From assembly GCA_965198565.1 (NCBI GenBank), contig OZ240665.1:4215514-4279513 (forward strand): a DNA stretch of 64,000 nt, written 5' to 3'. This DNA is from Acetobacteraceae bacterium. Lineage in GTDB: Bacteria; Pseudomonadota; Alphaproteobacteria; Acetobacterales; Acetobacteraceae. Numbering within the stretch: position 1 is the first letter of the stretch; each line of letters starts with the position of its first letter. The position numbers and the translations under genes are program-made. The notes below the pieces were generated by a model, which was not told where the DNA came from, searched no databases, and worked only from the letters and a program-made list of their open reading frames with translations. This document shows, in pieces, positions 31,613 through 42,583 of the stretch.

Positions 31613-32935
31613 TCATGTTCGCCAACGGCTCTGATAGGGTGGCAGGCCGAGGTTCTCGCGCAGCGTCGACCCGGCGTACTCGGTGCGGAAGCGTCCTCGC
31701 CGCTGCAGCTCGGGCACGACGAGCTCGACGAAATCGTCGATGCCCTGCGGCAAGTGGGTGGGCGTGATGTTGAAGCCGTCGGCAGCGCCGTTGTCGACCC
31801 ACTGCTCCATACCGTCCGCGATCTGGCTGGCGGTGCCGATGAGGCGGAAGCCCTCGCCCGCGGCGTACTCGTTGTAGAGCTGGCGGATGGACAGGTTGTC
31901 GCGCTGGGCCCGCTGCCACCAGCCATAGGCGATGCTGCGGACTTTGGCGCCCTTCGGCTCCGGGACGGGTCCGTCCAAGTCGTAGCCCGACAGGTCCCCC
32001 ATCAAGCCGTAGATGCGCGCCAGGCCCGCCAGCGGGTCGAGCAAGGACTGCAGTTGCTCGAGCTTGTCGCGCGCCTCCTGCTCGGTGCGGCCCACGATGG
32101 GGACCAAGGCGGGCATGATCTTGAGGCTGTCGGGCTCGCGGCCGAACTTGGCCATGCGGGCTTTGACGGCGGCGTAGTAGTCCTGGGCTGGGCCGAGGCC
32201 GTTGATGGACGCATACACCACGTCGGCGTCTGCCGCGGCGATCTCCTGGCCCATTGGGTTGGCGCCGGCCTGCACGAGGAGGGGGCGGCCCTGGGGGGTC
32301 GGCTTGACGCTGAGCGGGCCGCGGACGGCGAAGTGGCGGCCTTTGTGGTTCAGGACATGCAGCTTCGCCGGGTCGTAGAACACGCCAGAGGCTTTGTCCT
32401 CGAGGAACGCGTCCGGCTCCCAGCTGTCCCAGAGCCCGGTGACCACGTCGACGAACTCGCGGGCGCGGTCATAGCGGGTGTCGTAGTCGAGATGGCTGTC
32501 GCGGCTGAAGTTCCAGGCTTCCTGCTCGGACCAGGAGGTGACGATGTTCCAGCCGGCGCGGCCGCCGCTGATGTGGTCGAGCGAGGCGAACTTGCGGGCG
32601 ATGTGGTAGGGTTCGTTGTAGGTGGTCGATGCCGTGGTCACCAGGCCGATCTGGCGGGTCATGGGTGCCAACGCCGACAGCAAGGTGAGGGGTTCGAGCT
32701 CGACGTTGCGGTTGGAGCGGCAGAGTGAGCCGGGCGGGTCGTCATTGGCGCGGACGCCGATGCCGTCGGCGAAGAACACCATGTCGAACTTGCCCTCTTC
32801 CGCGCGGCGGGCGCAGCGCAGGAAGTGCTGGAAGTCCGACGCGCCGGCGGCGGGAACATCTGGGTGGCGCCAGGCGGCGTCGTGGTAGCCGAGATAGCGC
32901 ATCGACAAGCCGAGCCGGATTTGTCGCTTGCTCAT
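31613..32935 (-). CDS. LLM-class flavin-dependent monooxygenase (NtaA/DmoA/SnaA family)
   Basis: AEEGKFDMVFFAD, IGLVTTASTTYNEPY, SLDHISGGRAGWNIVTS, LWDSWE, PQGRPLLVQAG, VPELQRRG.FR..Y...TLRENLG. Confidence 0.93.
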   Translation of the reverse strand: MSKRQIRLGLSMRYLGYHDAAWRHPDVPAAGASDFQHFLRCARRAEEGKFDMVFFADGIGVRANDDPPGSLCRSNRNVELEPLTLLSALAPMTRQIGLVTTASTTYNEPYHIARKFASLDHISGGRAGWNIVTSWSEQEAWNFSRDSHLDYDTRYDRAREFVDVVTGLWDSWEPDAFLEDKASGVFYDPAKLHVLNHKGRHFAVRGPLSVKPTPQGRPLLVQAGANPMGQEIAAADADVVYASINGLGPAQDYYAAVKARMAKFGREPDSLKIMPALVPIVGRTEQEARDKLEQLQSLLDPLAGLARIYGLMGDLSGYDLDGPVPEPKGAKVRSIAYGWWQRAQRDNLSIRQLYNEYAAGEGFRLIGTASQIADGMEQWVDNGAADGFNITPTHLPQGIDDFVELVVPELQRRGRFRTEYAGSTLRENLGLPPYQSRWRT

Positions 32936-33229: not shown

Positions 33230-33306
33230 CTGTTTGACGGCGAATTTGCGCGAAGTCGCTTCGCAGTGGGTGTTGAGTTCGCAGTGGGTGTTTGGGGGGC
33301 CTCGCA

Positions 33307-33342
33307 CCCTCACCCCGACCCTCTCCCGCCCGCGGGAGAGGG
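33307..33342 (+). repeat. CCCTCACCCC..GGGAGAGGG repeat copy
   Basis: 33300-33346 is identical over 47 bp to 60931-60977. Confidence 0.92.
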
Positions 33343-33362
33343 AGATGTCCTCTGAATGCGGT

Positions 33363-33690: not shown

Positions 33691-34059
33691 TTAACGCGGC
33701 CCGAAATGGCGCTCCAGGATCGCAATGTTGCGCAGGTTGGCCTTGAACGTCATGTCGAACAGGTCGCCGAGGATGGGCACGCTGCCGCCGACGACCTCCA
33801 AGCCGACGTTGGCCAGCATCTGCATGAGCTTGGGCCGAGGCACGCCCAGCCGATACGCCTGGTAGACGATGTAGAGCGAAATCACGCCGAGGACTGCGTC
33901 GCCGCCGCCGGGGACCAGGCCGATCAGGCTGTTCAGGCCGAAGCGGAAGCGCAGCCCCGGGATGCGGAACGCGCCGTCCACAAGCCAGGCAAACTTGCGC
34001 AGGCGCCGCACGGTTGCTGCCACGTCGGAGACATCGGCGAACTCGGCGTATGCGGTCAT
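33691..34059 (-). CDS. DUF4112 family membrane protein
   Basis: A.LVDGAFRIPG..FRFGL..LIGLVPG.GD, VPILGDLFD..FKAN.RN. Confidence 0.9.
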   Translation of the reverse strand: MTAYAEFADVSDVAATVRRLRKFAWLVDGAFRIPGLRFRFGLNSLIGLVPGGGDAVLGVISLYIVYQAYRLGVPRPKLMQMLANVGLEVVGGSVPILGDLFDMTFKANLRNIAILERHFGPR

Positions 34060-34123: not shown

Positions 34124-35710
34124 CTAGCGTCGAAGGGTGGCGAGCACGCCGGTGGCGAATCCGGTCAGGGCGTCGCCGGCGATGACGCCGCCGGCGAACA
34201 CCTCCATCTCGGTCGTGGCCGCCGGGCCGCGAACCTGGCGGTAGGCCAGCCGCACGGCCACCCCCACCAACACGGCCCAGCCAGCGGCCGGCGCCACCAG
34301 CAGCATCCCGGTCGCGAACAGCACGCCGAGCTGGCGCTTGGGCCCGCCCAGCGCCTGCAGCAGCACGCCAGGGACCGCCCACAAGGCAAGCTGCCGGGCG
34401 ACGCCGGGCGCGGCTCCGGCCTTGATGGTGGCGACGTAGACCTTGGCCACGGGCGCCACGAGATTGGCCGCGAAGTAGCCGCGGTAGGACAGCAGGACCA
34501 CGATGGCGGCGATCACGAAGGCGAACAGGGCGGCGAAATACTGCTGCAAGCGCCCTGCCCGCTCGAACGCCGGGTCGATGCCCTCGCCGCGCAGCATGAA
34601 GCCGGCCTTGAGATCGTAGCCCATGTCGGCGAAGGCCGGGCCGGTGGCGGCGGAGAAGCCGACCAGCAGCGCCAGGGAGGTGGGCGGGAAGCCGATCAGC
34701 ATGCCGATGATGAGCGTGATCAGCGCCACGGCGAAGGCGGGGAACCAGCCGGAATGCATCGCCGCCAAGCCCACGATCAGCTCGTGCACCAGGGCGGCGA
34801 AGGCCGCGTAGACCACGAACGCCACCAGCATGCCCGGCCCGAGTTCGCCCCAGACGCCGCCCATGAGCGCGATCAGCACCGCGATGGCGACGTAGGCGAG
34901 CGCGCCCAGGCCGAGGGAGCGGCCGGAGCCGGGGGTGGCGGCGTGGGCCGCGCCGCGGGTGCGCAGCATCACCATCGCCACCTGCACCAGCGCCACCAGG
35001 CCGGCGCCGATCATCAGGCCGTGGGGGATGTAGGCGGCGGCCACGTCGTAGCCGGAGAACAGCGACTTGGAGTAGCCGCGCAGCAGCAGCCCGGCGCCGA
35101 ACATGGTCAGCGCCCAGACATTGCCGATGAAGGCGACGCCAAAGGCGGACATGGGGATGCCGAGGACCCCGGTGCCGACCGCCCCCGCGAGCACGCCGCC
35201 GCCCAGCAGCAACAGCCGGCTGCCGCCCTGGTCGCCGGCGCGGATGGCCTCCGCCGCCGCGACGCCGGGCGGCCACGCGCCCTCGGCCGGGAAGGCGCGG
35301 GAGCCGAACAGGCGGTAGAGCATGGTCGCGTCCACCAGCATGGCCAGGGCGACGCCGCCAAGCAGCGGCAACACCAGGTCCGACCGGCCGAGCAGGAAGG
35401 GGATGCCGATCGGCAGCAGCAGGCTGTTGCCGGCGCCGAACGTGGCGGCGGAGATGGCGCTTTGGGCCAGGTTCTGCAGGTGGATCGAGCGGTAGCGGGC
35501 GAACCCCGGCAGCGGTACCCGGGCCAGGCCCATCGCCACCAGCGCGCCGACGATGGCGGTGTTGGCGGTGACCCCCAGGGTCACCAGAAGCTGCATGCCG
35601 ATGATGGCGCCGACGATGCAGAGCGGCGTCAGCAGGAGCAGGGTGGCGGGCTCGAACAGGGTGGGGTGGCGGGTGCTGGCCGGCTTGCTGGTGACGGTGT
35701 CAGCATCCAT
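34124..35710 (-). CDS. OPT/YSL-family oligopeptide transporter
   Basis: Multi-TM protein; QNLAQSAISAATFGA, FPAEGAWPPGVA.AEAI.AGD, PAFADMGYDLK, GGVIAGDAL. Confidence 0.85.
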   Translation of the reverse strand: MDADTVTSKPASTRHPTLFEPATLLLLTPLCIVGAIIGMQLLVTLGVTANTAIVGALVAMGLARVPLPGFARYRSIHLQNLAQSAISAATFGAGNSLLLPIGIPFLLGRSDLVLPLLGGVALAMLVDATMLYRLFGSRAFPAEGAWPPGVAAAEAIRAGDQGGSRLLLLGGGVLAGAVGTGVLGIPMSAFGVAFIGNVWALTMFGAGLLLRGYSKSLFSGYDVAAAYIPHGLMIGAGLVALVQVAMVMLRTRGAAHAATPGSGRSLGLGALAYVAIAVLIALMGGVWGELGPGMLVAFVVYAAFAALVHELIVGLAAMHSGWFPAFAVALITLIIGMLIGFPPTSLALLVGFSAATGPAFADMGYDLKAGFMLRGEGIDPAFERAGRLQQYFAALFAFVIAAIVVLLSYRGYFAANLVAPVAKVYVATIKAGAAPGVARQLALWAVPGVLLQALGGPKRQLGVLFATGMLLVAPAAGWAVLVGVAVRLAYRQVRGPAATTEMEVFAGGVIAGDALTGFATGVLATLRR

Positions 35711-35716
35711 CGGGCT

Positions 35717-38700
35717 CTACTCCGCGGCGTTTTGGAGCGCGGCGCCGTACACCGCATGGGCGGCCGCCGCGCTGATGCGGCCCTCTTGCAAGTCCTCGGC
35801 CACGGCGGCGGGCAGCCGATCCTCGGCCGCGCCGTAGCCAGCGCCGCCGGCGAACACGATCTCGGCGATCTCGCCGGGATGGGTGAGCGTGACCAGCTCG
35901 CCGGCGCCGCAGTCGCGCAGGAGCGTGCCATCCGGCTGGCGCACGCCGGCGAAGGCGTGGCAGCCCGCCAACCCGCCGGACAGGCCGGGCAGCACGGCTT
36001 TTGCGCCCTCGGGGAACAGCGCGGCCAATGTGGGCAGGCCGTCGTCGTGCAGCTTGCGGAAGCGCACGCGCTGGCCCAAGCCGCCGCGCGACCGCCCTGC
36101 CCCGCCGCTGTCGGTCAGGAAGCTCTTTTCCTCCACCAGTACGGGCACGCGGGCCTCGAACACCTCGATGGCGGTGTTGGCGGCGGAGGTGGGGTAGAGC
36201 AGTCCGGACTTGCCGTCGCCGTGCGCGCTGCCGCCCTGGCCGCCGCCCATGAACAGGTGGTCGGCGTAGAATGCGCCGGCGCCGTCGCGGCCGGAGACGT
36301 TCACCGCCACCGGCAGGCCGGTGGGCGACTGGACGGCCTTGGGCGCCGCCTCGGCCAGGGCGCGGAAGATGGCGGGGGCCAGATACCAGCCGGTCCGGGT
36401 GCGGGAGGCGACGGCGGCGGGGCGGGTGCAGTTCACGATGGAGCCCTCGGGCGCGGTGACGCGGAACGGGCGGTAGCAGCCGGCATTGCCGCGCACCTGC
36501 GGCGTCAGCATGCATTTGAGCGGGTAGGTGGCATGCGCCGCGGTGTAGTTCAGGGTGGAGTTCACGCCGCCTTGGGCGAGCTGGGCGGGCGCGCCGGCGA
36601 AGTCGATGGCGATCTCGTCGCCGGCGACGGTGACCGACACGGGGAGGGTCAGCGCGGCATCGACCGGGCTGAAGGAGACGGTGCTGCGGTAGGTGCCGTC
36701 CGGCAGGGCGCGGATGGCGGCGCGCATGGCGGCCTCGGCGCGGTCCTGCACGATGGCGGCCAAAGCGGAGAGGTCGGCCAGGCCGTATTCGTCCATGAAG
36801 GCGGCCAGGCGTTGCGCGCCGATGCGGTTGGCGGCCATGAAGGCCTGGATGTCGCCGAGCACTTGGGCCGGGTTGCGCACGTTTTCGGCAATGATGGCGA
36901 ACAAGTCGGCATTGTCCACGCCGGCGCGGGCGAGCTTCATCGGGGGGATTTGCAGGCCCTCGTCGAAGATTTCGCGCGCGCGCAGGCTGTCGCGGGTGCC
37001 GCCGATATCGGCCACGTGGCCGACGGTGCCGACCAGCGCCACCACCCGGCCGCCCTGGAACACGGGGGAGACCACCGCGATGTCGAACAGGTGCCCGGCG
37101 CAGAGCCAGGGGTCGTTGGTGACCAGCATGTCGCCGGGCTGCAGGGTTTCGACGGGGAAGCGGGCCAGCAGGGCTTTGACCGCCCGCGGCAGGGTGAGGT
37201 TGAACACGGGCATGGCGCGGGGGGAGTGGGCTAGGGTTTCGCCCGCCGGGTCGAGCAGTTCGCAGGCGAAATCCTGGGATTCGGCGATGATGAGCGAGAA
37301 GGCGGTGCGGATGATGGTGAGCCACATCTCGTCGACGACGGTGGTGAGGCGGCTCCACATGATCTCGAGGGCGATTGGGTCCGCCTCGATGGCGGCGCGG
37401 GCTTCGGCGGGGGACATGTCGGGGCGCACCAGGCTCATCCGCGTGGCGGCGGCGACGGTGATGCGCAGGTTGCCCGCCGGGTCGATGCGCAGGCGGTCGC
37501 CGGGGGCGACGACGGTGGTGCACTCGCGCTCCTCGATGATGGCGGGGCCGGGGATTTCGGTGCCGGGTGCGAGCAGGGCGCGGTCGTAGACGGCGGTTGG
37601 CTGGAAGCCGTGCTCGAACCAGGCCGGGCGCTCGCCCTTGCGGGCTGAGCGGCTGCCGGGGCTCACGGCGGGCAGGGCGAGCGCCGGGACGGGGCCGGTG
37701 ACGGTGACGCGCAGGCTCACGACCTCGATGGCGGCGCCGGCGTGCATGGCGGCGTAGCGGGCGGCGTAGGCGGCGCTGAATGCGGCGACCAGGGCGGGCT
37801 GACCGGTGTCGGCCAGGGCGGCGGGGGGGAGCGGCACGGTGATCTCGTGCATCTGGCCGACGAGGCGCATGTCCGCCGCGCGGGCGACCTGCTGCACGGC
37901 CACGCCGGCGGCGCTCAGCTCGGCGCGGGCTGCTGCCTCCAGCTCGGCGAGGGTGCGGTCCAGCACGGCCAGGTCGGCGGCCGCCAGGCGGGTCGGGCGG
38001 GAGCGCACGCGGCTGGCGGAGAGTGGCGCGGCCAGGAAGCCCAAGGCGGAGGCGGCGCCGGAGGCGGGGGGCACGATGACCTCGGCGATGCCGAGCGCGC
38101 GGGCGACTTCGGCGGCGTGGGCGGGGCCAGCGCCGCCGAAGCCGACCATGGCGTAGCGGCGCGGGTCGCGGCCGCGCTCCACCAGGTAGACGCGGGCGGC
38201 GTCTGCCATGCTCTCCACCACCACCTTGTGGATGCCCCAGGCGGCCTGCTCGGGCGACAAGGCGAGTGGGGCGGCGACTTGCTCGAGGGCGGTGCGGGCG
38301 GCGGCGGGGTCGAGCTGCATGGTGCCGCCGAGGAAGAACGCCGGGTCGTAGTAGCCGAGCACGAGGTTGGCGTCGGTGACGGTCGGGCGTTGGCCGCCGC
38401 GGGCGTAGCAGGCTGGGCCGGGTGCGGCGCCTGCGGAGTGCGGGCCGACCCGGAGCAGGCCCACCGCGTCCAGCGCTGCGATGGAGCCGCCGCCGGCGCC
38501 GATCTCGATCATGTCCACTGTGGGCGCCTTGATCGGCAGGCCGGAGCCTTTCTTGAAGCGATGCTCCCGCGCGGCCTCCAGCAGGGGGGCGATCTCGGCG
38601 CGGCCGTCCTCGATGAGGCAGGCCTTGGCGGTGGTGCCGCCCATGTCGAAGGCCAGCAGGTCGGTGCAGCCGGCTTGGGCGCCGAGCAATGCTGCGGCCA

Positions 38701-39511
38701 AGGCGCCGCCGGCCGGGCCGGATTCGAGCAGTCGGACGGGGAACTGGCGCGCTGCCTCGAGCGACAGCAGGCCGCCCGCGGAGTGCATCAGCCAGAGCGG
38801 GCCGGCGAACCCGGCGGCGCGCAAGGTGCCCTCCAGGCGCTGCAGGTAGCGCGAGACCAGCGGCTGCACGTAGGCGTTGGCGCAGGTGGTGACGCAGCGG
38901 GCATATTCGCCGATCTCGGCCACCACGGCGGAGGAGACCGACACCGGCATGGCGGGCAGCAGCTCGGCCACGATGGCGGCGGCTTGCTGCTCGTGCTTGG
39001 GCTCGCGATAGGCGTGGAGGAAGCAGATGGCGATGGCCTCGGCGCCGGCCGCCTGCAGGGCGCGCGCGGCCCGGCGCACGGCTTCGGCGTCGAGCGGGGT
39101 GACGACGCGGCCGTCGCGGTCGATGCGCTCGGGCACTTCGAGGCGGCGGCGGCGCGGCACCAGGGGGTCGGGGTAGGTGAGGAACAGGTCGTAGATGTCG
39201 TAGCGCTGCTCGCTGCCGGCCTCGAGCACGTCGCGGAAGCCTGCGGTGGTGATCAGGCCGAGGTCAGCGCCCTTGCGCTCGATGACGGCGTTGGTGACCA
39301 GGGTGGTGCCGTGCACCATCTCGGCCACGTCCGCGAAGCCGGCGCCGTGTTCGGCGAGGATGTGGCGCACGCCCTCGAGCGCGCCGCGCGCCGGGTCGTC
39401 GGGGGTGGTGAGGCATTTGTGCAGCCGCATGGCGCCGGTGCGGCCGTCGACCAGGACGAAGTCGGTGAAGGTGCCGCCGATGTCGAAGCCGAGGCGGAGC
39501 GATGCTGTCAT
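35717..39511 (-). CDS. fused hydantoinase A/B (5-oxoprolinase family) ATP-dependent cyclic amidohydrolase
   Basis: [36 protein letters not shown] (A half); [36 protein letters not shown] (B half); ATG overlaps the gshB stop. Confidence 0.92.
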
Positions 39512-40515
39512 TGGGTTACGCTGCGCTCCGCCAATTTTCCTTCGATGCGGTCCCAGATGGCGGCGGCGAGGTCCACGCCGTCGAAGCGGGCCACCTCCTG
39601 CAGGCCGGTGGGCGAGGTGACGTTGATCTCGGTGAGCCAGTCGCCGATCACGTCGATGCCGACGAACAGCAGCCCGGCGGCGCGCAAGGTGGGGCCGATG
39701 CGGGCGCAGATTTCGCGGTCGCGCGCGGTGAGGGGGGATTTTTCCGCGCGGCCGCCGACATGCATGTTGGAGCGGGCGTCGCCGGTGGAGGGCACGCGGT
39801 TGACGGCGCCCATGGCCTCGCCGTCGACCAGGATGATGCGCTTGTCGCCGAAGCGCACGGCCGGCTCGTAGCGCTGGATCATCAGCGGCTCGCGGGAACG
39901 GGACCAGTGCATGTCCAGCAGGGAGCCGAGGTTCTCGTCGCCGTCCTTGAGGCGGAACACCCCGGTGCCGCCGTTGCCGTAGAGCGGCTTGACGATGATG
40001 TCGCGGTATTCGTCGCGGAAGGCGCGGATGGCCGCCGGGTCCCAGCTTATGAGGGTGGGGGGCATGAGTTCGGGGAAGTGGGTGACGAGGAGCTTCTCGG
40101 GGGCGTCCCGCACGCTCTTGGGGTCGTTCACCACCAGGGTGTGGGGGTGGACGTGCTCCAGCATGTGGGTGGCGCTGATATAGGCCATGTCGAACGGCGG
40201 GTCCTGCCGCATGAGCACGACGTCGACCTGGGCGAGGTCGAGCGTTTCTTCCGGGCCGAAGCTGTGGTGGGCGCCGCGGACGCGCTCGACGCGGATGGGG
40301 CGGGCGCGTGCGGTGAGGCGTTCGGTGCGCTGTTCGAAGGGGGGGCCGGCGGGCGTGGTCTTGCCTTCGGCCAGGCTCATGTTGCGCACTTCGTAGTGCC
40401 AGAGGGCATGGCCGCGGCGCTGGGCCTCGAGCATGAGGGCGAAGGTGGAATCCGCGTCGATGTTGATGGGCTCGATCGGGTCCATCTGGACCGCGACCTT
40501 CAGCGGGTTCGGCAT
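39508..40515 (-). CDS. gshB: glutathione synthetase
   Basis: [62 protein letters not shown]. Confidence 0.97.
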
Positions 40516-40553
40516 GGCTGATCTCGCTTGCAAGTCGTGACCTGGCGCCGGAG

Positions 40554-40613: not shown

Positions 40614-41042
40614 ATGAGACTTGCTTTGACAGCCGCCGCCCTCGTGGTGGCAGCGGGAACGGCGTTCGCGCAGACCTCGGCCACTACGCCGAACAGCGCC
40701 GGGACGACGGCAGCGACGCCGAGCCAGGTCCAGACTGGGACCACGCCCAGCGCCGGCCCGAGCCCGACAAGCGCGCAGGGTGCGACGGGTACCGCGCAGG
40801 GTGCGACGGGTGCCGCGCAGGGTGCGACGGGTGCTGCGCCGTCGCAGGCGGCGACCACGCCGGCGCCGGGTCGCAACAGCTTCACCCAGCGCCAGGCGGC
40901 CAGCCGGATCCGGCGCGCGGGCTACACCGACGTGTCCGGCCTGAAGAAGGACGGGCAAGGCGTTTGGCGTGGCACGGCGAAGAAGAGTGGCAGCCAGGTT
41001 GGCGTGTCGCTCGATTACAAGGGCAATGTGGTCGGCCAGTAA
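40614..41042 (+). CDS. secreted protein with a C-terminal PepSY-like domain and a 21-bp tandem repeat
   Basis: Signal peptide; NSFT..QA..RI..AGY.DVSGLKKD.QGVWRG; AQGATG(T/A) x3 at 40773-40835. Confidence 0.85.
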   Translation: MRLALTAAALVVAAGTAFAQTSATTPNSAGTTAATPSQVQTGTTPSAGPSPTSAQGATGTAQGATGAAQGATGAAPSQAATTPAPGRNSFTQRQAASRIRRAGYTDVSGLKKDGQGVWRGTAKKSGSQVGVSLDYKGNVVGQ

Positions 41043-41090: not shown

Positions 41091-41708
41091 ATGCGTACAG
41101 TTGCGCATCTCTATGACGACTACGGCACGGCTCAAAAGGTCGTTAGCGAACTCGAGGCGGCCGGCTTCAGCCATGATCAGGTGAGCTTGATCGCAAACCA
41201 AGGTGGATCGTCCACGCCCGGGGCGGACGCGACGGGCGGCACGAAGAGCGGCACGGGGACTGGCGCGGGTGCGTCCATCGGCACCCTCGTTGGCGGTGGC
41301 GCCGGGCTGCTGGCCGGCATTGGCGCGCTGGCGATTCCGGGCGTGGGGCCGGTGGTGGCGGCCGGTTGGCTGGTTGCGACGTTGACGGGCGCTGGCGCTG
41401 GCGCGGCGGCGGGTGGGCTGCTGGGCTCGCTGGCTGGCGCGGGCGTGCCGGAGCAGGACGCGCATGTGTATAGCGAGGGCGTTCGCCGCGGCGGTTCGTT
41501 GGTGACGGTTCGCGCGGAGGATGCGCAGGCGGCGGAAGCTGAGACGATCATGCAGCGGCACAACCCGGCGGACATCCAGCAGCGTGGGGCGACCTACCGC
41601 AGCACGGATTCTTGGGCTGGCTTCGACCCGAACCGGGCTGGGTTGACGCCGGAGGAACTCGCTGCCGAGCGGGCGCGCATTGCCACGAGTTCCTCGTCCG
41701 GCGTGTAG
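41091..41708 (+). CDS. general stress protein (YflT-like, Gly-zipper membrane segments)
   Basis: LYDDY..A..VV.ELEAAGF, GLLAGIGALAIPGVGPVVAAG, A.VY.EGVRRGG.LVTV. Confidence 0.88.
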   Translation: MRTVAHLYDDYGTAQKVVSELEAAGFSHDQVSLIANQGGSSTPGADATGGTKSGTGTGAGASIGTLVGGGAGLLAGIGALAIPGVGPVVAAGWLVATLTGAGAGAAAGGLLGSLAGAGVPEQDAHVYSEGVRRGGSLVTVRAEDAQAAEAETIMQRHNPADIQQRGATYRSTDSWAGFDPNRAGLTPEELAAERARIATSSSSGV

Positions 41709-41854
41709 GTTTGTACTAGCGGTTCGACAGAACCGCCCCGTCGTCCTGAGCGGGGTGCGGTGCCAAAGCGCACCGCACCGTGCGAGGTTCGTGGGGCGGC
41801 ATAGGCCGCGTCGCCTTCCCCTACGATCACGCGTCATCCAGAGGAGCGTCTCCG

Positions 41855-42583
41855 ATGCCGGCGACTGCCACTGCCATTCCGATCCTGTCGGACAACTATG
41901 CTTGGCTGTTCAAGGACGGTGCGACCGGGTTCACCGCGGTCGTGGACCCGGCGGAACTGGGCCCGATCGAGGCAGCGATTGCTGGGTCAGGCGGTCGGCT
42001 CGACATGATCCTGCTCACGCACCATCACGACGACCATATCGCGGCGGTCGAGCCGCTGCGGCAGCGCTATGGGGCCAGCGTTGCCGGGGCTGAAGCGGAC
42101 GCTCGGCGCCTGCCGAAGCTGGATATCGCGCTGCAGGAAGGCCAGCATGTCGAACTGGGCGATGCGACGGCGCGGGTAATCGACACGCCGGGTCACACGG
42201 TGGGGCATATTTCCTTCTTCATTGGGTCCGGCAGCATCCTGTTCTGCGGCGACACGCTGTTCAGCCTGGGCTGCGGCCGGCTGCTCGAGGGCAGTGCGGC
42301 CGACATGTTCGGCAGCCTGCAGAAACTCGCCGCGTTGCCGGGCGAGACGCTGGTGTGTTGCGGTCATGAGTACACGCAGAGCAACGCTCGCTTCGCCGTG
42401 ACTGAGGAGCCCGGCAATATGTCGCTGCGGGACCGCGCTGCGGAGGTAGATCGGTTGCGGGCGGCTGGGCAGGCGACGGTTCCGACGCGGCTGGCCGAGG
42501 AACTTGCGGCCAATCCGTTCCTGCATGCGGCGAATGCGGAGGAGCTTGGCGCGATGCGGTCGCGGAAGGACAATTTTCGGTAG
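41855..42583 (+). CDS. gloB: hydroxyacylglutathione hydrolase (glyoxalase II)
   Basis: DNYAWL, LTHHHDDH, TPGHT.GH, GDTLFSLGCGR, CGHEYT..N, E...NPF. Confidence 0.95.
   Translation: MPATATAIPILSDNYAWLFKDGATGFTAVVDPAELGPIEAAIAGSGGRLDMILLTHHHDDHIAAVEPLRQRYGASVAGAEADARRLPKLDIALQEGQHVELGDATARVIDTPGHTVGHISFFIGSGSILFCGDTLFSLGCGRLLEGSAADMFGSLQKLAALPGETLVCCGHEYTQSNARFAVTEEPGNMSLRDRAAEVDRLRAAGQATVPTRLAEELAANPFLHAANAEELGAMRSRKDNFR

Follow-up and report, generated by a model that had tools for sequence, protein, structure and literature searches.

When a gene for glutathione synthesis runs directly into genes for a hydantoinase-type enzyme and a peptide-type permease, do the three form one pathway? We met this arrangement in a 64,000-nucleotide stretch of an Acetobacteraceae genome (contig OZ240665.1, positions 4,215,514 to 4,279,513; hereafter the window, whose own coordinates are used unless stated otherwise). 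There, the glutathione synthetase gene gshB is followed on the minus strand by a fused HyuA–HyuB gene, hyuAB, and by a gene for an OPT-family permease. Eukaryotic 5-oxoprolinase, OPLAH, is a HyuA–HyuB fusion and yeast Opt1/Hgt1 imports glutathione, and with this established knowledge the first-pass annotation of the locus had proposed a bacterial gamma-glutamyl-cycle operon, naming as its alternative a hydantoinase and OPT module that had landed behind gshB. Our comparisons favor the second. The pair is best read as a mobile HyuAB–OPT cassette that was relocated behind gshB and that may serve the import and ATP-driven opening of a small cyclic amide, a reading to which we assign a probability of about 0.68.

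The three genes are tightly packed, as the first-pass annotation had described. The host genome is closed, 4.67 Mb long and 99.2% complete, and among named taxa it is closest to Rhodopila and Acidisphaera. gshB (39508–40515, minus strand) begins with an ATG, and a second open start, the TTG at 40533, lies upstream of it. The gene matches PF02951 (GSH-S_N) and PF02955 (GSH-S_ATP) and scores above the cut-offs of the NCBIfam glutathione synthase equivalog NF003573 (442 bits, cut-off 272) and of TIGR01380 (405 versus 299). Reading the sequence confirmed that the gshB stop codon overlaps the start of hyuAB in an ATGA (39508–39511, minus strand; caATGAca, the gshB TGA falling inside the ATG-ACA of hyuAB). 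The fused gene (35717–39511, minus strand) encodes 1,264 amino acids and ends in TAG, and after a spacer of 6 nucleotides (nt; AGCCCG, 35711–35716, minus strand) it is followed by the gene for the 528-amino-acid permease (34124–35710, minus strand), with a GGAG 9 nt ahead of the ATG at 35710.

The linkage to gshB exists in this species alone among the genomes compared. A scan for orthologues, with one genome per species, gave 79 loci with a fused enzyme 48–82% identical to that of the window, from taxa including Rhodopila, Acidisphaera, Roseomonas/Pseudoroseomonas, Bosea, Neorhizobium, Rhizobium, and Burkholderiaceae, and gshB was found within 6 kb of the enzyme gene in none of the 79. Within the same genus, six genomes with complete loci carry the enzyme at 78–82% identity with the OPT gene directly downstream, and seven further genomes carry orthologues that are 63–64% identical; gshB is upstream of the enzyme in none of these thirteen. 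When the other 24 species of the genus were searched with an 800-nt probe across the gshB/hyuAB junction, the joined form was seen in 0 of the 24, and probe positions 1–369/381 and 399/415–800 always matched at separate places. Metagenomes gave the same picture, with gshB beside relatives of the OPT subfamily in none of 80 loci (OPTs 50–80% identical to this permease). Synteny with gshB in relatives, which the first-pass annotation had itself named as a check, is absent, and a linkage unique to this strain is one half of what it had said would refute its proposal; with 0 of 79, 0 of 24, and 0 of 80 loci linked to gshB, and with conserved partners that are not glutathione genes (see below), the gamma-glutamyl-cycle operon is not supported.

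The same comparisons indicate how the linkage arose. gshB is single-copy in this genome and stands at its ancestral locus, the one gshA being 2.1 Mb distant; in relatives, its orthologues are 76–87% identical and have the same divergent neighbors, in the order gloB, YflT-like gene, PepSY-like gene, and divergent gshB. In the related genome G004, gshB is directly followed by a DUF4112 gene that is 87% identical to the one at 33691–34059 of the window (minus strand; Pfam DUF4112), where it marks the distal edge of a 5.4-kb insertion. As the relatives have the gshB locus, and G004 the gshB–DUF4112 order, without the pair, the arrangement in the window equals the ancestral order plus 5.4 kb. The pair itself is found elsewhere: genome G024, another relative, has hyuAB–OPT between xseA and folE, which in the present genome are adjacent, 180 nt apart, with the gap made of REP-like repeats, and in G004 and G005 the pair stands after a gene for a 1,130-amino-acid glycosyltransferase. 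The empty site in G004 and the different position of the pair in G024 match the landed module that the first-pass annotation had offered as its alternative. The REP-like palindromic element, with a CCCTCTCCC...GGGAGAGGG core and a length of about 40–120 nt, gives about 1,000 blastn hits genome-wide; two copies fill the xseA|folE gap (genome C1:4010461–4010640, outside the window) and one lies near 33295–33348 of the window.

The junction with gshB also accounts for the ATGA overlap. The homology of gshB to its relatives stops about 20–30 nt before the junction, and the hyuAB genes of relatives also begin with ATG-ACN (Met-Thr). Because the TGA is embedded in this native ATG-ACN start of the cassette, the ATGA overlap did not evolve as a means of coupling. 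We infer that the adjacency to gshB is an accident of recent rearrangement and thus no evidence of a glutathione cycle. The closest enzyme, placed as sister with full support, is that of G002, which has low-GC intergenic DNA upstream of the gene and its gshB on another contig; a weak similarity of the G002 hyuAB leader to the gshB tail was too short to interpret. The same was true of a 9-nt imperfect repeat at the ends of the cassette (GTAACCCAA / GTAAACCAA), considered as a mobility signature. A sister cassette is also carried by the metagenome-assembled genome (MAG) sequence CAZZVB010000050.1, labeled "uncultured Burkholderiaceae", which appears to be the same contig as in the Acetobacteraceae genome G002; this label and "Janthinobacterium lividum", given to a MAG fragment, look like binning or naming errors.

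What is conserved is the fused enzyme together with an importer of peptide type. An OPT gene immediately follows hyuAB in about 28 of the 79 genome loci and in 27 of 66 informative metagenome loci, and a Dpp/Opp-like ATP-binding cassette (ABC) system, with a family-5 binding protein, two permeases, and two ATPases, adjoins the enzyme in about 27 of the 79. The type of transporter switches at least three times on the tree built from 53 full-length enzymes, and such interchangeable importers point to one imported substrate class. An IclR regulator is found upstream in about 26 of the 79 loci, and the closest clade has an AroM–LuxR fusion in 8 loci and a stand-alone AroM in 5. The predicted structure of AroM (pLDDT 93.7) has the Asp/Glu/hydantoin racemase fold, with hydantoin racemase 2eq5, arylmalonate decarboxylase, maleate isomerase, and glutamate racemase as the top matches, and of the cysteines of AroM one is invariant and a second nearly so. 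Several loci contain an M20 hydrolase, which is of the aminoacylase/carboxypeptidase type (TIGR01891, 345 bits) and not a carbamoylase (TIGR01879, 32 bits).

The permease leads to a wider gene set. It matches Pfam OPT (PF03169, TC 2.A.67) at 48.3 bits (cut-off 25.8) over its C-terminal half only and has no NCBIfam match, and its assignment, which upholds the first-pass one, is backed by its neighbors in the protein atlas, where 29 of the 30 nearest clusters are OPT (score 0.98), and by NCBI, which names its relatives OPT/YSL. The gene is single-copy in the genome and its subfamily is small, with 497 cluster representatives at E ≤ 0.001 among 1.84 billion proteins and one genome with a member turned up among 300 sampled Alphaproteobacteria and one among 400 sampled Pseudomonadota. 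In one of those two genomes hyuAB is upstream; in the other, the locus comprises IclR, OPT, and an S-Me-THD-like (DUF917) gene. This second type of partner was as common as the first among the 80 metagenome loci: 29 have the fused enzyme, 29 have DUF917 and/or DUF1177, and none has both. The mutual exclusion suggests equivalent jobs on a related substrate. AroM, present in 29 of the 80, accompanies either enzyme set, and a full metagenome example reads PucR regulator, Asp/Glu/hydantoin racemase, OPT, DUF917, DUF1177, and AroM. The pair would thus belong to a widespread OPT/AroM/DUF917/DUF1177 catabolic gene set for a cyclic amide or peptide derivative. Hydantoin racemase, DUF917, AroM, di/oligopeptide ABC transporters, OPT, and peptidases are enriched around non-CDPS cyclodipeptide oxidases, and none of these enriched partners has been characterized (Andreas & Giessen 2024, PMC11055893); literature searches on AroM with oxoprolinase, on DUF1177, and on S-methyl-thiohydantoin desulfurase yielded no other study of use. 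One metagenome protein of 863 amino acids, P0319, combines Hydantoinase_B with OPT and is either a real HyuB–OPT fusion or a frameshift or gene-calling artifact at the 6-nt junction.

What, then, is the enzyme? Hydant_A_N, Hydantoinase_A, Hydant_A_C, and Hydantoinase_B occur in this order, all above the Pfam cut-offs (E values from 1e-17 to 2e-136), and the phosphate/ATP-site motifs FDIGGTFTD and FDMGGTT can be read in the translation. The best relative in the PDB is 7hk5_A, a fused N-methylhydantoinase of 1,288 amino acids and bacterial-type sequence (608 bits over residues 6–1260), with an identity of about 40% as estimated from the alignment, and the next is caprolactamase CapA (359 bits). 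The scores of 530.8 and 214.8 bits with the caprolactamase CapAB equivalogs lie below the NCBIfam cut-offs of 1000, and the score with acetophenone carboxylase is likewise far below its NCBIfam cut-off; the enzyme therefore falls in a distinct clade that has no specific name. Publicly, its homologues are called only "hydantoinase B/oxoprolinase family protein" or, automatically, "5-oxoprolinase/N-methylhydantoinase". The first-pass annotation had taken the fusion of HyuA and HyuB as a sign of a eukaryote-type 5-oxoprolinase. As the N-methylhydantoinase 7hk5, the closest solved structure, is fused as well, this architecture is not diagnostic for 5-oxoprolinase and the argument is a weak one. 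By its domains and motifs, the protein is a putative ATP-dependent ring-opening amidase of the hydantoinase/oxoprolinase family. Its substrate is probably peptide-derived, the candidates being a 5-substituted hydantoin, a diketopiperazine, or a pyroglutamyl compound. 5-Oxoproline is a possible but unsupported substrate, and several lines, given below, lower its odds.

These pieces can be joined into a mechanism. A two-gene accessory cassette would have moved between gshB and its former neighbor DUF4112, and the join would have replaced the last few gshB codons, such that the reading frame now ends at the TGA of the cassette's ATG-ACN start. The permease would import a small chiral cyclic amide, the fused enzyme would phosphorylate or otherwise activate it and hydrolyze the ring with consumption of ATP, and general enzymes may then deal with the linear product. 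In the gene set, HyuAB would stand in for DUF917/DUF1177. Neither a terminator nor an evident promoter would fit into the junction, and transcription of the cassette probably starts at the gshB promoter.

Several points weigh against this account. Co-transcription from the gshB promoter, with termination–reinitiation at the ATGA, is suggested by geometry only. At the cassette junctions in this genome we found no direct or inverted repeats, no 75-base repeat, and no REP-like elements, and no repeats, integrase, or transposase flank the cassette. The AroM gene is absent from this genome, and the copy is therefore reduced to enzyme and importer, as in several sister species. Many of the metagenome contigs are short, which inflates the class of loci with neither enzyme set. 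Known glutathione importers occur among both Dpp-type and OPT transporters. Among the solved relatives of the linked binding proteins, E. coli GsiB/YliB ranks third for one protein (at only 115 bits) and AgaA ranks first for one (122 bits); as clues to the substrate, we rejected both likenesses as too weak. Finally, pxpA (LamB_YcsF) is absent from this 99.2%-complete closed genome, and the disposal of 5-oxoproline may therefore fall to one of the Hyu paralogues.

Could the enzyme then be a general 5-oxoprolinase that replaces PxpABC in housekeeping damage control, independent of glutathione, while the permease scavenges pyroglutamate or pGlu-peptides? The missing pxpA speaks for this, and a cassette without downstream enzymes would fit glutamate as a product that needs no special catabolism. 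The distribution of the enzyme argues against it. The enzyme is accessory, being present in 15 of 24 genus genomes, and its pattern is not complementary to that of pxpA: each of the four genomes (out of 24) with pxpA has the enzyme as well, and both are missing from four genomes of at least 91% completeness. The substrate-responsive regulators, the racemase-like AroM, and the M20 aminoacylase point instead to an exogenous, chiral substrate that yields acyl-amino acids, and the job could be done by at least four other Hyu loci in this genome, which include a second fusion and several split HyuA/HyuB pairs. We consider the housekeeping role unlikely. The second fused paralogue (genome 4038674–4042348) is 39% identical and has a luciferase-like monooxygenase, a histidine kinase, and an S9 peptidase nearby, a neighborhood that gives no hint of a function as 5-oxoprolinase. 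At 1 kb from purD there is a further HyuA paralogue, which stands alone.

The operon proposed in the first-pass annotation, in which an OPLAH-type 5-oxoprolinase and an OPT importer of glutathione or of gamma-glutamyl or pyroglutamyl peptides would be coupled to gshB at least in this species, draws on the tight coupling, which is real, and on the eukaryotic parallels named at the outset. Moreover, the genome has at least seven loci of the gamma-glutamyltransferase (GGT) family, gshA, gshB, and no pxpA, and a 5-oxoprolinase activity is otherwise unaccounted for. Set against this are the restriction of the linkage to this genome, conserved cassette partners that are unrelated to glutathione, the fused state of N-methylhydantoinase, and the co-occurrence of the enzyme with pxpA in all four genomes that have the latter, next to the four that lack both. 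No ChaC-type cyclotransferase was found in the genome, GGCT/AIG2-type cyclotransferases not having been searched. Bacterial "Opl" homologues also act elsewhere: the P. putida genes annotated oplBA hydrolyze valerolactam and caprolactam, and the use of 5-oxoproline depends on a PxpABC paralogue (10.1101/2021.12.09.472016, PMC11033972). Taken together, we regard such an operon as distinctly improbable.

A variant grants that the linkage is new and holds that the capture of the pair by gshB was selected and not accidental, giving a newly assembled gamma-glutamyl-cycle operon with one promoter, a putative 5-oxoprolinase, and a putative importer of glutathione or of gamma-glutamyl or pyroglutamyl peptides. 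If so, glutathione synthesis, ring-opening salvage, and uptake would be co-expressed in a species without PxpABC and ChaC but with many GGTs; we give this little credence. There is only a very slight chance that the enzyme is a classical hydrolase of hydantoin or N-methylhydantoin (creatinine pathway) that has recruited a permease: its best solved relative is the fused N-methylhydantoinase and a partner with the hydantoin-racemase fold, AroM, occurs in relatives, but the identity to the solved enzyme is only the estimated 40%, no N-carbamoyl-amino-acid or N-carbamoylsarcosine amidase is linked, and the linked M20 is of the aminoacylase and not the carbamoylase type.

The genes upstream of gshB belong to its ancestral surroundings. 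On the plus strand, divergent from gshB, stand a gene for a secreted PepSY-like protein (40617–41042; Pfam/NCBIfam) and one for a YflT-like protein (41091–41708; Pfam/NCBIfam), both ancestral neighbors of gshB. They occupy the gap to gloB (41780–42583, plus strand; glyoxalase II, TIGR03413, 280 bits), which the first-pass annotation had placed about 1.3 kb away and which we measured at 1.27 kb from the gshB start, on the opposite strand. The PepSY_2-domain gene, whose position upstream of gshB is conserved in relatives, contains a 21-nt tandem repeat (40772–40839; 3.2 copies, 95% match) that encodes AQGATG-type repeats. Another luciferase-like monooxygenase lies at 31613–32935, 1.2 kb past the cassette.

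For annotation, the consequence is that the gshB linkage gives no basis for naming the enzyme a 5-oxoprolinase or the permease a glutathione importer. The locus offers a clean natural case in which a catabolic cassette, having lost its regulator, became joined to the stop codon of a housekeeping gene and probably to its promoter as well; sister species show the reciprocal empty sites. It also links a large clade of fused HyuA–HyuB proteins, with thousands of database members and all without names, to the uncharacterized OPT/AroM/DUF917/DUF1177 set, and the exclusive partnering of HyuAB versus DUF917/DUF1177 would narrow the substrate searches for both to small, chiral cyclic amides.

How does the pair compare with systems already known? 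Eukaryotic OPLAH and yeast Oxp1 (EC 3.5.2.9) are, like the present enzyme, single polypeptides with the same order of halves, a similar length, and ASKHA-type ATP motifs. The likeness is one of architecture, and the enzyme here is accessory and mobile and has no conserved genomic tie to glutathione genes. The fused N-methylhydantoinase (PDB 7hk5/9h03) shares the fused architecture and matches over the whole length, but at the modest identity estimated above, and no genes of the creatinine or carbamoylsarcosine pathways lie near the enzyme in our genome. CapAB and the valerolactam hydrolase OplAB of P. putida belong to the same family and also open lactam rings at the expense of ATP, but they are two-subunit enzymes and have aminotransferase and beta-oxidation partners. 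They show that a bacterial gene with the annotation "5-oxoprolinase" often has another lactam as the substrate of its product.

Agropinic-acid catabolism in Agrobacterium involves the binding protein AgaA, mentioned above, and the HyuA/B-like lactamase AgaF/G. The resemblance there lies in the combination of a family-5 ABC importer with a lactam-opening enzyme of the Hyu type whose substrate is an N-substituted pyroglutamate; the sequence similarity is weak, and the copy described here uses an OPT permease and not an ABC importer. The OPT/AroM/DUF917 (S-Me-THD-like)/DUF1177/hydantoin-racemase set shares with the cassette the same OPT subfamily, as well as the AroM and IclR partners that accompany the fused enzyme in relatives, where a Dpp-type ABC system is the alternative importer. 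It differs in that the hydrolase slot is here taken by the ATP-dependent fused HyuA–HyuB, the two solutions being exclusive in 58 loci, and in that the present copy, located behind gshB, no longer has AroM and its regulator.

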